This document shows positions 50,933 through 63,797 of a stretch of DNA of 64,000 bases, piece after piece (positions within the stretch are counted from its first letter, which is position 1; the number at the start of each line of letters is the position of its first letter). The stretch is from Thermoanaerobaculia bacterium. GTDB lineage: Bacteria > Acidobacteriota > Thermoanaerobaculia > UBA5066. The notes beneath the pieces were generated by a model that saw only the letters and a program-made list of their open reading frames with translations, had not been told where the DNA came from and searched no databases. The stretch lies in contig CAVRAY010000001.1 in NCBI GenBank assembly GCA_963719225.1, positions 2,144,001 to 2,208,000 on the forward strand, written 5' to 3'. Made by a program: the position numbers and the translations under genes.

Positions 50933-51402
50933 GGAACGGGACCCGCGTCGTCGCTCCGCTCGCCCCCGTCTTCGAGAGCGTCGTCGGGTCGACGATGAGG
51001 CCCGGCGATCGCGGCACCGCGAAGCTCGTCCGCGACTGGGGCGACCGGCTCGTCACCATCCGCTACCGCTACAGCAATTCGCCGCCAACGCGGTTCACGA
51101 CAGTCGAGCTCGTCGTCGCGTCGGCGCCATGGGCCCCTAAGGCTTCACGGAGCGTCCTCGTCGAGGTCCGGTCGTGGGAGGGAGAGCTCAGGGAGAAGAT
51201 TCGAGCCGCCGGCGGGCGGTTCGTTCTGAAGGCCATGCGCTGGCGAATCCGCTACGACAAGGCGATCGCCCTCGGCCTGAAGGATCGTGTTTCGTTCCTG
51301 GTCCCGCATGCCCCGCCAACCCCGAGAACCTCTACACCCGTAGGGACGCGAAAATCACTACCTGCACAGACATCCGGTCGGTTCAAGGGCAAAAGCACCT
51401 AG
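50929..51402 (+). CDS. Small basic hypothetical protein at the head of the cassette array
   Basis: GTG overlaps the SBP stop (alternative ATG 50995). Core MRPGDRGTAKLVRDWGDRLVTIRYRY...TTVELVV...ELREKIRAAGGRF...WRIRYDKAIALGLKDR; no tyrosine-recombinase motifs. Confidence 0.7.
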   Translation: MRNGTRVVAPLAPVFESVVGSTMRPGDRGTAKLVRDWGDRLVTIRYRYSNSPPTRFTTVELVVASAPWAPKASRSVLVEVRSWEGELREKIRAAGGRFVLKAMRWRIRYDKAIALGLKDRVSFLVPHAPPTPRTSTPVGTRKSLPAQTSGRFKGKST

Positions 51403-52731
51403 CAGGCTGCTGAAGAAAGGGCTCTTTTTCAAAGGAGCTTGAGCGGGAGAAGACACGTCAAGCTGAAAGAGGGGATTGCTTCGAGAGAGTGAGTCCGTGC
51501 TGCTCGCCTTTTTCGGCCCGCTTCGGTCGCACCGAGGGGCGCTTCAGGGGGAATCAGGCGGTCGAGGACTCCATTCGCGCCATTCGGACGAGGTTGTAGG
51601 CCGTCATCACGCTGAGGACGTGAGCCGCCACGCGGGCGAGTCCTCGGAAGCGCGTCTTGGCCAGGCCTCCGATGGTCTTACTCCAGCCGAAGATTTCTTC
51701 GACGCGCTTCCTGATTCGCTGGCTCACGGCGTAGCCCGCGTGTCTCGTCGTCCTTCGGTCGATGGCGCTGCGCCTGTTGGTGGTGTTCTGGGCCACGTGG
51801 GGCGTGACGCCTCTCTCTCGGAGCCTTTCGATGAAATCCCTCGTGTCGTAGCCCTTGTCGCCGGCCAGCGTGATGCGCTTGTCCGAGCCCAGCTCGTCGA
51901 CCATGCCCAGTGCGGCCGACCTCTCCCCGTAGCCGTCGGCCGTCGTTACGCGCGCCTTCACGCACAGTCCGTTTCTGTTCTCCATCAAGACGTGGCCGAG
52001 GTAGCACAGCTGCGAAGGCTGGCCGTCTCCCTTCTTGTAGAGCTTGGCGTCGGGATCGGTCGTCGAGGCGTGCGTGTCGTTGCGCCTCTTCTGGCCGCGA
52101 AAGTCGACATCGGCGTTGCGGCCGCCAGGAGCTGGCGGCTCATCGCCGCCCTTACCGTCCTTGTCCTTCCGGGGCTGGAAGCTCTTCAAGGAGGCGTTCG
52201 CTTCGATCAGCGTGCCGTCCACGGTGAAGTGCTCGTCCGAGAGAAGAAACTTCTTGCGGGCCTGTGCGACGACTTCCGAGAAGAACTCCCCGAAGACCTC
52301 GGCCTCCAACAGTCTCTGGCGGTTCTTCGAGAAGGTCGTCGGATCGAAGGCCGGTGCAAGCCCCGGCATGTCCAGGAACCAGCGGAAGAGAAAGTCGTAC
52401 CCGAGCCGCTCGCAGAAGAGCCGCTCGCTTCTCACGCTGTACAGCGCGATGAGGATCTGCGCCTTGAGAAGCATCTCGGGCGGAATCGATGGACGCCCTC
52501 GCTCCGAGTACAGCCTGGCGAGCTTGGGCTCGAGACGCCTGAGCGCTTCGTCTGCAAGCGCCTTCACCTTGCGGATCGGGTGGTCCCGCGGCACGAGCTC
52601 CTCGGGCGTCATCGTCACGACAAGATCGACCTGCTTTTCGTTGTCTCCACGCATGCACACCAAGGTGCAGCCGCATCGCGCAGCAGTCAATGCCTCGCCG
52701 CGATTTTCAGGAGCCCTTTTTCAGCAGCCTG
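51403..52731 (-). mobile_element. IS5-family insertion sequence
   Basis: Terminal IRs CAGGCTGCTGAA(G)AAAGGGCTC; CTAG duplicated at 51399-51402 and 52732-52735. Confidence 0.92.
51554..52654 (-). CDS. IS5-family DDE transposase
   Basis: GRPSIPPE, YSVRSER, VDGTLIEA, GDKGYD, RKRVEEIFGWSK, AYNLVR. Confidence 0.92.
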   Translation of the reverse strand: MRGDNEKQVDLVVTMTPEELVPRDHPIRKVKALADEALRRLEPKLARLYSERGRPSIPPEMLLKAQILIALYSVRSERLFCERLGYDFLFRWFLDMPGLAPAFDPTTFSKNRQRLLEAEVFGEFFSEVVAQARKKFLLSDEHFTVDGTLIEANASLKSFQPRKDKDGKGGDEPPAPGGRNADVDFRGQKRRNDTHASTTDPDAKLYKKGDGQPSQLCYLGHVLMENRNGLCVKARVTTADGYGERSAALGMVDELGSDKRITLAGDKGYDTRDFIERLRERGVTPHVAQNTTNRRSAIDRRTTRHAGYAVSQRIRKRVEEIFGWSKTIGGLAKTRFRGLARVAAHVLSVMTAYNLVRMARMESSTA

Positions 52732-52755
52732 CTAGATGCAGATACCGCTCTTGCC

Positions 52756-54810: not shown

Positions 54811-54959
54811 CGGGTTCCGGCGCCGCCCAACACCTCATATCTGGACTCCTCCTTGGGATCAAGTGCGGGCGGTCTGTGGTTTTTCTCCTTCTAAGAAATC
54901 AGGCGATCCTGGGTCGTCGGGGCGATTCCTGCGTGGGAACGCGATCGATGGTGATGAGC

Positions 54960-55110
54960 GGAGAAGGTCGCGACGGCACTCGTATCTACGGCCTCTTCTG
55001 TTGGAGCCTTCGTGGGCTCCGGGCCAGGATGAAATCCGCACACGGGGGGCCAATCGTTGTGCAACGGCTTCTTGGAGCCAGAGGTGTTATCGGCTTTGCC
55101 CCGTGTCGGT
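54960..55110 (-). ncRNA. Predicted bridge/seek RNA of the IS1111-type element (same in copies 2 and 3)
   Basis: Two stem-internal-loop-stem modules; loop strands match the attC target (AACACCUC, CCGUUGCA) and the IS ends (UUCAUCC, AGAUA). Boundaries approximate. Confidence 0.72.
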
Positions 55111-55187
55111 CGGACCGAGCTCATCTGTCGCATCTTTCGCGTTCGTCGGCGGGAAGGGCTGACGGGTTTCTCTCCCACTTTCTCGTT

Positions 55188-56243
55188 TCAGGCAGAAGCG
55201 GTTGCTGGAGGGTTCTGAGCGGCGAACCTGGCCTTGAACGGCTCGCCCCGCGTCGCGACGGCCCAGATGATCCGGGCGAGCTTGTTTGCGACGGCGACTG
55301 CGGCGCGGTTTCGCCCGCGCCTGTTCTCGACCTCGAGCGCCCATCGCTGCAGGTCATGCGGCCTTTTCCTGCGATGGGCCGAGAGCAGCATCGAGCGGGC
55401 CCCGCCGATCAAAAGCGTCCTGAGGTACGGGTCTCCGGCCTTGCTGATCGACCCGAGCCACCTTCTCTTTCCGCTCGAGCTTTCCTTCGGCGTCAGCCCG
55501 AGCGAGCTCGCAAACTTCCGTCCCGACTTGAAGCGCAGGAAGTCTCCGACCATCGCAGAAAACGCCGTGGCGTTCAGGAGACCTACACCCGGAATCGTCT
55601 CGAGCCTCTCGACGAGAGGAGCCGTCCGGGCCAGGGCCTTCAGCTGCTTTTCGACCTGCCCGCTTCTTTCCTCGAGCTCTCGGGCCTCGGCCATCATCGC
55701 CATGAGCGCCGCGTGAAGGGGTTCGGGCACGGGCGAGGAAGACTGCGAGAGGGCTTCGAAAAGCGCCGGCTGGACTCTCTCGGCTCCCTCGGCAATCACA
55801 ACCCCGAATTCCCTCAGCAGACCTCTCACGGTGTTCAGCCGGGCGGTCCGGGTCTTCATCAGCGCCGCGCGCACCCGGTGAAGCGCGCAGATGGTCTGCT
55901 GCTCGACCGTCTTGACGGGCACGGCGACGATCGTTTCTCGGTGCCGCGCGCTCAGGATCGCTTCGGCGTCCCTGCGGTCGATCTTCTGGCCGATGCGGTA
56001 CGGCCTGACGTGCTGCGCCGGAAGCAGCCGCACGTCGTGCCCGAGCTCCTGCGCCTTGCGGCCCCAGTAGTGCGAGGTGCCACACGTCTCCATGAGGATC
56101 GTGGCCCTGGGGCACTGCGAAAGAAACGTGATCATCTGCCCTCGGCTCAGCCGCTTCCTCTGGCAGATGCGCCCCCCGCGCTCGACGGCAATCTCGAAGA
56201 CGCTCTTGGACAGGTCGATCGCGATCGTCGTAGGATTCTCCAT
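55188..56243 (-). CDS. IS110-family (DEDD RuvC + Tnp20) recombinase, copy 1
   Basis: IAIDLSK, METCG, KIDRRDA, IPGVG, GLTP..SSSGK, ANKLAR. Confidence 0.95.
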   Translation of the reverse strand: MENPTTIAIDLSKSVFEIAVERGGRICQRKRLSRGQMITFLSQCPRATILMETCGTSHYWGRKAQELGHDVRLLPAQHVRPYRIGQKIDRRDAEAILSARHRETIVAVPVKTVEQQTICALHRVRAALMKTRTARLNTVRGLLREFGVVIAEGAERVQPALFEALSQSSSPVPEPLHAALMAMMAEARELEERSGQVEKQLKALARTAPLVERLETIPGVGLLNATAFSAMVGDFLRFKSGRKFASSLGLTPKESSSGKRRWLGSISKAGDPYLRTLLIGGARSMLLSAHRRKRPHDLQRWALEVENRRGRNRAAVAVANKLARIIWAVATRGEPFKARFAAQNPPATASA

Positions 56244-56407
56244 GGACTCCTCCTTTTCGGCTTCACTCTCCGACTCGATGACGTTGGCACACAGATGCCG
56301 TTTTCACGTCATGAAGGAGGAGTCCACTTCATCCCTGCAGCGGACTCGTCGTCAGTCGCTGCGCTCCTTCCTCCTCGCCGCTGAGCTTGATATCGTTAGG
56401 CCGCTCA

Positions 56408-56823: not shown

Positions 56824-58320
56824 TATCTGGACTCCTCCTTGGGATCAAGTGCGGGCGGTCTGTGGTTTTTCTCCTTCTAAGAAATCAGGCGATCCTGGGT
56901 CGTCGGGGCGATTCCTGCGTGGGAACGCGATCGATGGTGATGAGCGGAGAAGGTCGCGACGGCACTCGTATCTACGGCCTCTTCTGTTGGAGCCTTCGTG
57001 GGCTCCGGGCCAGGATGAAATCCGCACACGGGGAGCCAATCGTTGTGCAACGGCTTCTTGGAGCCAGAGGTGTTATCGGCTTTGCCCCGTGTCGGTCGGA
57101 CCGAGCTCATCTGTCGCATCTTTCGCGTTCGTCGGCGGGAAGGGCTGACGGGTTTCTCTCCCACTTTCTCGTTTCAGGCAGAAGCGGTTGCTGGAGGGTT
57201 CTGAGCGGCGAACCTGGCCTTGAACGGCTCGCCCCGCGTTGCGACGGCCCAGATGATCCGGGCGAGCTTGTTTGCGACGGCGACTGCGGCGCGGTTTCGC
57301 CCGCGCCTGTTCTCGACCTCGAGCGCCCATTGCTGCAGGTCATGCGGCCTTTTCCTGCGATGGGCCGAGAGCAGCATCGAGCGGGCCCCGCCGATCAAAA
57401 GCGTCCTGAGGTACGGGTCTCCGGCCTTGCTGATCGACCCGAGCCACCTTCTCTTTCCGCTCGAGCTTTCCTTCGGCGTCAGCCCGAGCGAGCTCGCAAA
57501 CTTCCGTCCCGACTTGAAGCGCAGGAAGTCTCCGACCATCGCAGAAAACGCCGTGGCGTTCAGGAGACCTACACCCGGAATCGTCTCGAGCCTCTCGACG
57601 AGAGGAGCCGTCCGGGCCAGGGCCTTCAGCTGCTTTTCGACCTGCCCGCTTCTTTCCTCGAGCTCTCGGGCCTCGGCCATCATCGCCATGAGCGCCGCGT
57701 GAAGGGGTTCGGGCACGGGCGAGGAAGACTGCGAGAGGGCTTCGAAAAGCGCCGGCTGGACTCTCTCGGCTCCCTCGGCAATCACAACCCCGAATTCCCT
57801 CAGCAGACCTCTCACGGTGTTCAGCCGGGCGGTCCGGGTCTTCATCAGCGCCGCGCGCACCCGGTGAAGCGCGCAGATGGTCTGCTGCTCGACCGTCTTG
57901 ACGGGCACGGCGACGATCGTTTCTCGGTGCCGCGCGCTCAGGATCGCTTCGGCGTCCCTGCGGTCGATCTTCTGGCCGATGCGGTACGGCCTGACGTGCT
58001 GCGCCGGAAGCAGCCGCACGTCGTGCCCGAGCTCCTGCGCCTTGCGGCCCCAGTAGTGCGAGGTGCCACACGTCTCCATGAGGATCGTGGCCCTGGGGCA
58101 CTGTGAAAGAAACGTGATCATCTGCCCTCGGCTCAGCCGCTTCCTCTGGCAGATGCGCCCCCCGCGCTCGACGGCAATCTCGAAGACGCTCTTGGACAGG
58201 TCGATCGCGATCGTCGTAGGATTCTCCATGGACTCCTCCTTTTCGGCTTCACTCTCCGACTCGATGACGTTGGCACACAGATGCCGTTTTCACGTCATGA
58301 AGGAGGAGTCCACTTCATCC
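56824..58320 (-). mobile_element. IS1111-type element, copy 2
   Basis: Same ends and length as copy 1, with a few substitutions. Confidence 0.92.
57174..58229 (-). CDS. IS110-family recombinase, copy 2
   Basis: Differs from copy 1 at LQQW vs LQRW. Confidence 0.95.
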   Translation of the reverse strand: MENPTTIAIDLSKSVFEIAVERGGRICQRKRLSRGQMITFLSQCPRATILMETCGTSHYWGRKAQELGHDVRLLPAQHVRPYRIGQKIDRRDAEAILSARHRETIVAVPVKTVEQQTICALHRVRAALMKTRTARLNTVRGLLREFGVVIAEGAERVQPALFEALSQSSSPVPEPLHAALMAMMAEARELEERSGQVEKQLKALARTAPLVERLETIPGVGLLNATAFSAMVGDFLRFKSGRKFASSLGLTPKESSSGKRRWLGSISKAGDPYLRTLLIGGARSMLLSAHRRKRPHDLQQWALEVENRRGRNRAAVAVANKLARIIWAVATRGEPFKARFAAQNPPATASA

Positions 58321-60949: not shown

Positions 60950-60999
60950 TGAATCGCCCCGGCTTTTCCGGAGGCTCCAACACTTGAGAGGATGGAGCC

Positions 61000-62231
<1,232 letters not shown>

Positions 62232-62300
62232 ACCAGTCTCCGGAGAACCCGGGGTGATTCATTGCCTTTTCGCCACTGCATTAGGGCGCCTAACACCTCA

Positions 62301-63797
62301 TATCTGGACTCCTCCTTGGGATCAAGTGCGGGCGGTCTGTGGTTTTTCTCCTTCTAAGAAATCAGGCGATCCTGGGTCGTCGGGGCGATTCCTGCGTGGG
62401 AACGCGATCGATGGTGATGAGCGGAGAAGGTCGCGACGGCACTCGTATCTACGGCCTCTTCTGTTGGAGCCTTCGTGGGCTCCGGGCCAGGATGAAATCC
62501 GCACACGGGGAGCCAATCGTTGTGCAACGGCTTCTTGGAGCCAGAGGTGTTATCGGCTTTGCCCCGTGTCGGTCGGACCGAGCTCATCTGTCGCATCTTT
62601 CGCGTTCGTCGGCGGGAAGGGCTGACGGGTTTCTCTCCCACTTTCTCGTTTCAGGCAGAAGCGGTTGCTGGAGGGTTCTGAGCGGCGAACCTGGCCTTGA
62701 ACGGCTCGCCCCGCGTTGCGACGGCCCAGATGATCCGGGCGAGCTTGTTTGCGACGGCGACTGCGGCGCGGTTTCGCCCGCGCCTGTTCTCGACCTCGAG
62801 CGCCCATTGCTGCAGGTCATGCGGCCTTTTCCTGCGATGGGCCGAGAGCAGCATCGAGCGGGCCCCGCCGATCAAAAGCGTCCTGAGGTACGGGTCTCCG
62901 GCCTTGCTGATCGACCCGAGCCACCTTCTCTTTCCGCTCGAGCTTTCCTTCGGCGTCAGCCCGAGCGAGCTCGCAAACTTCCGTCCCGACTTGAAGCGCA
63001 GGAAGTCTCCGACCATCGCAGAAAACGCCGTGGCGTTCAGGAGACCTACACCCGGAATCGTCTCGAGCCTCTCGACGAGAGGAGCCGTCCGGGCCAGGGC
63101 CTTCAGCTGCTTTTCGACCTGCCCGCTTCTTTCCTCGAGCTCTCGGGCCTCGGCCATCATCGCCATGAGCGCCGCGTGAAGGGGTTCGGGCACGGGCGAG
63201 GAAGACTGCGAGAGGGCTTCGAAAAGCGCCGGCTGGACTCTCTCGGCTCCCTCGGCAATCACAACCCCGAATTCCCTCAGCAGACCTCTCACGGTGTTCA
63301 GCCGGGCGGTCCGGGTCTTCATCAGCGCCGCGCGCACCCGGTGAAGCGCGCAGATGGTCTGCTGCTCGACCGTCTTGACGGGCACGGCGACGATCGTTTC
63401 TCGGTGCCGCGCGCTCAGGATCGCTTCGGCGTCCCTGCGGTCGATCTTCTGGCCGATGCGGTACGGCCTGACGTGCTGCGCCGGAAGCAGCCGCACGTCG
63501 TGCCCGAGCTCCTGCGCCTTGCGGCCCCAGTAGTGCGAGGTGCCACACGTCTCCATGAGGATCGTGGCCCTGGGGCACTGTGAAAGAAACGTGATCATCT
63601 GCCCTCGGCTCAGCCGCTTCCTCTGGCAGATGCGCCCCCCGCGCTCGACGGCAATCTCGAAGACGCTCTTGGACAGGTCGATCGCGATCGTCGTAGGATT
63701 CTCCATGGACTCCTCCTTTTCGGCTTCACTCTCCGACTCGATGACGTTGGCACACAGATGCCGTTTTCACGTCATGAAGGAGGAGTCCACTTCATCC
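62301..63797 (-). mobile_element. IS1111-type element, copy 3
   Basis: Same ends, 1497 bp, appears identical to copy 2. Confidence 0.92.
62651..63706 (-). CDS. IS110-family recombinase, copy 3
   Basis: Same protein as copy 2. Confidence 0.95.
   Translation of the reverse strand: MENPTTIAIDLSKSVFEIAVERGGRICQRKRLSRGQMITFLSQCPRATILMETCGTSHYWGRKAQELGHDVRLLPAQHVRPYRIGQKIDRRDAEAILSARHRETIVAVPVKTVEQQTICALHRVRAALMKTRTARLNTVRGLLREFGVVIAEGAERVQPALFEALSQSSSPVPEPLHAALMAMMAEARELEERSGQVEKQLKALARTAPLVERLETIPGVGLLNATAFSAMVGDFLRFKSGRKFASSLGLTPKESSSGKRRWLGSISKAGDPYLRTLLIGGARSMLLSAHRRKRPHDLQQWALEVENRRGRNRAAVAVANKLARIIWAVATRGEPFKARFAAQNPPATASA

Follow-up and report, generated by a model that had tools for sequence, protein, structure and literature searches.

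The stretch flagged by the initial annotation in the 64,000 nt of DNA analysed here (the window) is very probably the downstream non-coding end of an IS1111-type element inserted in integron attC sites and, judged from its sequence, would encode a bridge/seek RNA that steers the element's own DEDD recombinase there. Natural insertions further suggest, on balance, that attC-targeting IS1111 recombinases are not always scarless, with about a quarter of the insertions losing target bases at an off-register right-end junction and the left-end junction being exact. This one-sided loss is a detail without a match in our literature search; the RNA class itself was shown experimentally in 2024.

The initial annotation held, in that we recovered an IS1111-type element with a putative two-loop guide RNA matching attC and the abutted IS ends, and with three insertion products in the window. 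Its rating of novelty was, however, too high, because the seekRNAs of the attC-targeting elements ISKpn4 and ISPst6 have been purified and that of ISPa25 predicted (Siddiquee et al. 2024, PMC11187229), and what this RNA contributes is a further natural set of guides within a class already published.

The element and its insertion sites

Three copies of the element are present in the window and five in the genome, one of the two outside the window being truncated, and all five interrupt attC-type sites. To fix the ends (Table 1), we set empty attC sites, the boxes of which are named R'', L'', L' and R', against 64 right-end and 47 left-end junctions. Copy 1 differs at four bases from the other two copies in the window.

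Elements of the IS1111 group have terminal extensions of 7 and 3 bases outside their subterminal repeats, which measure 11-13 bp, and the 13-bp perfect repeats of the element leave 8 and 4 bases outside, or 7 and 3 counting the first, mismatched repeat position. As in that group, a long non-coding region follows the transposase gene (350 bp downstream of the ORF, with about 90 bp upstream), the target is not duplicated (of 38 two-ended insertions, 28 restore the site at full length, 10 leave it shorter and none makes it longer), and a DEDD RuvC-like domain is combined with a C-terminal domain carrying the GL-P----SG serine. Both IS110-family domains (PF01548 and PF02371) were found in the 351-aa protein, S257 of which aligns in the GLTP....SG motif of IS621.

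Insertion occurs at one position and in one orientation of attC, both in the five genome copies and in the 43 of 47 left-end junctions that run into YTGCAG. Measured from the AAC of R'', the insertion point is 9 bases away, as in the IS1111-attC elements (Table 1 of PMC13604230), which likewise have the downstream non-coding region and subterminal repeats with 7- and 3-base extensions; the differences here include the Acidobacteriota host lineage and the guide letters. Close relatives, with 73-87% identity, occur in Acidobacteriota assemblies, and the best named plasmid match is ISPa25, with a transposase 47% identical. By these sequence features, the element is a new Acidobacteriota member of the published IS1111-attC group.

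Table 1. Positions in the window of the element, its insertion site, its recombinase and its predicted guide RNA.
Feature	Position	Strand	Remarks
IS1111-type insertion sequence, copy 1, 1497 bp	54838..56334	-	Ends set by junctions against empty attC sites
IS copy 2	56824..58320	-	R''-side flank 2 bases shorter than intact sites of its type
IS copy 3	62301..63797	-	Identical to copy 2; site matches perfectly, without loss
Right-end subterminal inverted repeat, 13 bp	54842..54854		
Left-end subterminal inverted repeat, 13 bp	56314..56326		
Third inverted-repeat copy, over ribosome-binding site and start codon	56243..56255	-	Predicted leader hairpin with left repeat
R''-side half of attC site split by copy 1	54825..54837	+	
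L''-to-R' half of attC site split by copy 1	56335..56401	+	
attC target types			AACACCTCA, AACAACGCG, AACATCGGC
351-aa DEDD recombinase/transposase	55188..56243	-	D10, E52, D89, D92; PF01548, PF02371
-35-like hexamer	54857..54862	-	-10-like TAGGAT 17 bases on only once both ends are joined
Predicted full-length bridge/long seekRNA	54962..55130	-	Comparative structure, covariance model
Target-binding module, equivalent of short seekRNA	55041..55105	-	
First target guide, same sense as attC R''-side flank	55080..55089	-	Covaries with flanks, 0/20,000 permutations
Second target guide, pairs attC L'' side	55053..55067	-	Followed by CGAU, putative core/handshake bases towards incoming donor
First donor guide, matches IS left end	55027..55035	-	Last base tracks left end in 33/38
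Second donor guide, matches IS right end	54979..54988	-	Followed by CGAG, putative core/handshake bases towards incoming target

The predicted hairpin between the third and the left repeat (-38.4 kcal/mol, z -4.0) is conserved in close relatives and would likely damp translation. A circular intermediate with a junction promoter is a mark of the IS1111 group, and the ends of the element, once joined, would give a -35/17/-10 arrangement of predicted activity. A promoter scan of the linear element returned one plus-strand match only, the junction promoter being absent, as expected for the linear form. In a search of sequencing runs the best share of words was 0.12, from relatives of the element only, and the circle junction was not seen in the contigs of two RNA and two DNA runs, which hold only these relatives. 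The same contigs cover parts of the element, with one RNA run covering all 30 bins, and contigs cannot show the strand or ends of an RNA.

Structure and homologues of the guide RNA

Folding reproduced the minus-strand module described in the initial annotation, with its 9-nt and 10-11-nt strands unpaired, and the four guide segments lie where they had been placed (UAACACCUC at 55081-55089, CCGUUGCA within 55055-55067, UUCAUCC at 55027-55033 and AGAUA at 54983-54987). The G-U pair ascribed to the GCCGAU/AUUGGC stem is present, but inside the stem rather than closing it. Folding z-scores were -2.4 for the minus strand (291 nt) and -0.7 for the plus strand; the 165-nt core alone, with a z of -0.9, is not unusually stable, so support for the fold comes from comparison and not from energy.

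For the comparison, 43 distinct RNA variants were reduced to 28 and aligned. Stems were paired in 97.6% of cells, with two-sided change in 10 of 39 pairs; none of 500 shuffles came as high and slid controls reached 29-51%, but the shuffles overstate significance because a single sequence, ISPa25, supplies many of the two-sided changes and the aligned elements are related by descent. The covariation analysis proposed in the initial annotation bore the RNA out across related IS, the stems being kept with compensatory changes and the guides changing with flanks and IS ends.

A covariance model of the RNA matched ISKpn4, ISPa21, ISPpu24 and one unnamed relative in their non-coding regions, over the full length and with 58-61 bits, none of the four having been in its training set. 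The ISKpn4 region scored 60.2 bits over model positions 1-169, which establishes homology to a purified seekRNA. The RNA is therefore alike over its full length in ISKpn4, ISPa21 and ISPpu24, and these elements, ISPst6 and ISPa25 have the same guide order; the second target guide is here 2 bases longer than in ISPa25 and ISKpn4, the excess likely forming a bulge. For the elements in PMC11187229, the accessible text maps no donor guides and reports insertion without added bases and no lost bases. Within the genome of the element the model found only the five IS copies, and an Rfam scan returned no family for the guide RNA, its sole match being the ALIL pseudoknot of an IS3-type element.

Guides and the DNA they match

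One internal loop of the predicted RNA carries the sequence found on either side of the insertion point in attC, and a second one that of the two IS ends as they would abut in a circle. As in seekRNAs and bridge RNAs, the guides for both target strands share an internal loop, the top-strand match coming first in IS orientation, and, as in IS621, the donor-binding loop matches the circle junction. In 20,000 dinucleotide shuffles of the non-coding end, the chance of a match was 0.00015 and 0.069 for the first and second target guides, and 0.020 and 0.13 for the donor guides, while both target guides together, and likewise all four guides, were found in none (0/20,000). The AGAUA match (0.13) is not significant by itself and is backed by covariation.

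Guides changed together with the DNA that they match. The agreement of the first target guide with its own flank was 0.77, as compared with 0.60 when permuted (0/20,000; five variable positions, 25 guide-flank types). The first donor guide ends in ATCC or ATCA in step with the IS left end in 33 of 38 cases, and the second is AGAUA with the right end TATCT in 48 of 49 and AUAUA with TATAT in ISPa25, the IS end and the second donor guide having both changed again in ISKpn4 (ATATG). A 52%-identical relative (L010/L102, genome G030) occupies a non-attC site, and both of its target guides have changed to match. Together, the attC subtypes, the non-attC target and three donor-end variants make a useful natural reprogramming series.

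attC sites form hairpins. Recognition of this hairpin by the protein, with the guides matching by chance, would agree with the target having been noted as a potentially folded structure (PMC11187229), but it is scarcely credible given the absence of both target guides from all shuffles, the covariation of guides and flanks, the relative retargeted outside attC, and the co-purification of the homologous ISKpn4 RNA with its transposase (PMC11187229). It is also improbable that the target module alone guides, as a short seekRNA, with module 2 as a scaffold and the protein reading the IS ends via the subterminal repeats. An 82-nt seekRNA of ISEc11 sufficed for movement and only target matches were mapped (PMC11187229), AGAUA is common by chance, and the first donor guide of ISKpn4 matches just 5 bases of the left end; against this, donor guides track IS ends in separate lineages (ATCC/ATCA, AGATA/ATATA, and ATATG in ISKpn4), and an IS110-group element needs its full RNA for circle formation and integration (bioRxiv 10.1101/2025.10.25.684509).

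In the genome of the element, 4 of 5 occupied sites and 1 of 13 empty ones have at most one mismatch to the first guide, all three sites that match it fully are occupied and the common AACAACGCG sites are mostly empty, counts that are descriptive only because kin are not independent. Mismatches are tolerated, as several relatives lie in sites with 1-2 mismatches, and well-matched sites are empty in genomes G006 and G021. A small correction to the initial annotation concerns copy 2, the flank of which departs from the first guide at two positions and lacks 2 bases.

Crossover and junctions

Judged from the junction sequences, the crossover would fall after the first base of the attC L'' box and before the second. 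All 62 true right-end junctions, 4 of 66 rows having been dropped as chance matches, begin with the IS bases TATC or TATA, and the base retained at the left-end junction is that of the target, as the L' box predicts. The junctions read CR|TATC and ATCC|YTGCAG, and donor (CC|T) and target (CR|Y) differ on both sides of the crossover, in contrast to the core dinucleotide common to both in the IS621 type. We rejected a shared CT core, since the first base past the crossover is the target's in left-end junctions and the donor's in right-end ones.

The + strand sequence of the window is retained in the two junctions alike. This fits the IS621 repair model, which predicts top-strand retention (PMC11208158), or top-strand-only integration, described together with direct transfer for CazIS110-1 (10.1101/2025.10.25.684509). 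Of 35 full-length junctions (mostly from one clade), 33 end in four target bases with which the four bases after the second donor guide can pair in at least three positions, as would be expected of handshake bases. Handshake bases and mismatched bottom strands have been described for IS621 (Hiraizumi 2024, PMC11208158; 2026, PMC13626964), and it is from PMC11208158 that we infer a handshake role for CGAU after the second target guide.

As in the IS621 bridge RNA, there are two loops, each with a guide for either strand, and the bases past the right-hand guides can pair with the incoming strand. Unlike in IS621, the RNA region follows the gene and the orientation in which the DNA is read is the opposite one, the donor loop is a multiloop, as predicted for IS1111 bridge RNAs (Durrant 2024, PMC11208160), a common CT core is missing, and protein similarity was detected in the C-terminal half only. 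The element works like IS621, yet is not filed under the IS621 type. CazIS110-1, in which a target-loop-only RNA is the major species, as for seekRNAs, belongs to the IS110 group and not to IS1111, and the accessible part of the preprint reports no junction losses for it.

From homology with ISKpn4 and IS621, the IS ends would join into a circle and create the -35/17/-10 promoter, from which a transcript would yield transposase and guide RNA. The RNA would bind the 351-aa protein, as its homologues suggest; its target loop would pair with both attC strands, opening attC, and its donor loop would pair with and open the circle junction. Strand exchange would take place at the crossover point named above, within the L'' box, and would need no full core common to donor (CC|T) and target (CR|Y).

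Some junctions depart from the general pattern. Right-end junctions at L167 (G012:C77), L128, L055 and L182 end in CC, the donor's two last left-end bases, and may be rare products of the other strand; a strict rule that junctions always end in a purine was rejected, exceptions having been found. Relative lineages L124, L125, L106 and L177-L179 insert one base earlier in attC without loss, and in L124 and L125 the second target guide is adjusted to the earlier insertion point. L100 (G021:C14) has a 15-base duplication of the right end at a two-short junction. We also rejected the idea that the IS brings in AACACCTCA, as empty sites with AACACCTCA are common in relatives.

One-sided loss of target bases

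The 64 unique right-end junctions lie 9 bases from the AAC of R'' in 44 cases, 8 bases in 6 and 7 bases in 12, and 2 were unplaceable. Once these 2 (no placeable AAC) and then 24 of 62 with one end only had been dropped, 38 two-ended insertions comprised 28 with a full site, 7 two bases short and 3 one base short, with all loss at the right-end junction. Seven further two-ended insertions from other Acidobacteriota lineages (7 of 14 rows dropped, without a left end) included 2 short, 3 shifted without loss and 2 exact. For instance, window copy 2, one of the 10 short insertions, is preceded by AACAACG, and intact sites of its type read AACAACGCG. The loss is deduced from site families and not from an empty allele of the same cassette, as our searches found no such allele for any short site. 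In 63 genomes, the cassette that precedes copy 2 was not found in empty form, and the one homologue of the cassette preceding copy 1 has no attC after it.

These junctions indicate that the right-end junction is probably, at times, made or repaired 1-2 bases off, which would remove target bases. The short junctions might alternatively not stem from insertion but reflect attC variants that were already short, subsequent slippage at CGCG or errors in the assemblies, which we regard as unlikely. A few empty two-base-short sites do exist, one genus has a natural one-base-shorter attC type (26 of 41 short matches), and several genomes appear to be long-read assemblies (few contigs). However, two-base-short sites are 2 of 767 empty pattern matches in 175 genomes (9 of the 767 from genomes flagged unpublished), as compared with 12 of 62 occupied junctions; in genome G040, short sites are 4/4 of the occupied and 0/28 of the empty ones and the lost bases are not a repeat; and short junctions recur in many separate assemblies. 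The two-base-short empty sites, at C1:1103061 (minus) in the genome of the element and at L043 and L140, are such as a rejoined short insertion would leave, and are possibly excision scars or simple slippage.

Given loss during insertion, its likeliest cause, which we put forward tentatively, is that the free target 3' end re-registers on the CG bases of the donor loop. Ten of 12 two-short junctions end in CG, the dinucleotide next to the donor-loop guide, and the two-short register of G040 pairs 4/4 with donor-loop bases. Loss varies with target type, 4 of 6 AACAACG-type junctions being short versus 1 of 20 beginning with AACACCT. The CG rule fails for AACAACGCG sites, where the unshifted register pairs at least equally well (for this RNA 3/4 versus 2/4 shifted, by hand), for the three one-base-short products, which pair only 1/4, and for junctions L187 and L189, which end in GC and look untrimmed (other end unseen).

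Direct transfer without a circle would make the loss by two separate top-strand transfers, with the second nick 1-2 bases from the first. For CazIS110-1, the two junctions have been reported to be transferred directly, one after the other (10.1101/2025.10.25.684509), the losses seen here affect a single junction, and L125, L106 and L177-L179 shift both junctions together without loss, so that the cut position is adjustable. We nevertheless find it doubtful for the element, because a route through a circle is favoured by the well-spaced promoter that arises on joining the ends and by the match of the donor loop to the circle junction.

Base loss made by the insertion reaction itself, through re-registering or otherwise, would matter for engineering bridge/seek recombinases as scarless tools and would bear on the debate over how the second strand is joined. 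If insertion is not always scarless, the two junctions would be set by different pairings (the target loop, and either the donor-loop handshake or a separate transfer) with no common core; if so, sequence alone would offer a simple read-out on whether four-strand, top-strand-only or direct-transfer schemes hold, a matter in dispute, and the few empty attC sites that are short would be scars of excision. An attC site with an insertion and lost bases in its R''-L'' spacer would likely be inactive, with its cassette fixed. In our literature search, no IS1111/attC element was reported to lose bases at its junctions; the two founding papers on IS1111-attC elements, Tetu and Holmes 2008 and Post and Hall 2009, may mention such losses.

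The surrounding cassette array

No integrase lies near the cassette array of the window, and a single IntI, about 1.08 Mb distant, exceeded the cut-off. In the attC sites between 53220 and 64000 of the window, R' is preceded by a spacer of 8 bases (TTGATATC or TCGATATC), longer than the classical one of 6, and two attC subtypes pair their own R''-side spacer with distinct L boxes. Copy 1 joins a AACACCTCA-type left half to a CTGCAG/GCTGAGC-type right half, the body of which equals the attC at C1:2208222; similar hybrid sites occur at L058 and L033, and none is among the listed empty sites. Recombination between IS copies may shuffle cassettes in this array without an integrase of its own.

Other mobile elements are also present. 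An IS3-type element with an ALIL frameshift pseudoknot (window about 60956-62261) splits the cassette before copy 3, and another DDE element (DUF772 and DDE_Tnp_1; window about 51400-52735) lies at the start of the array. Copy 4 (C1:2209336-2210165 in the same genome) has kept the RNA and the right end, has lost the left 670 bases and is fused to the 3' half of an attC-like site.
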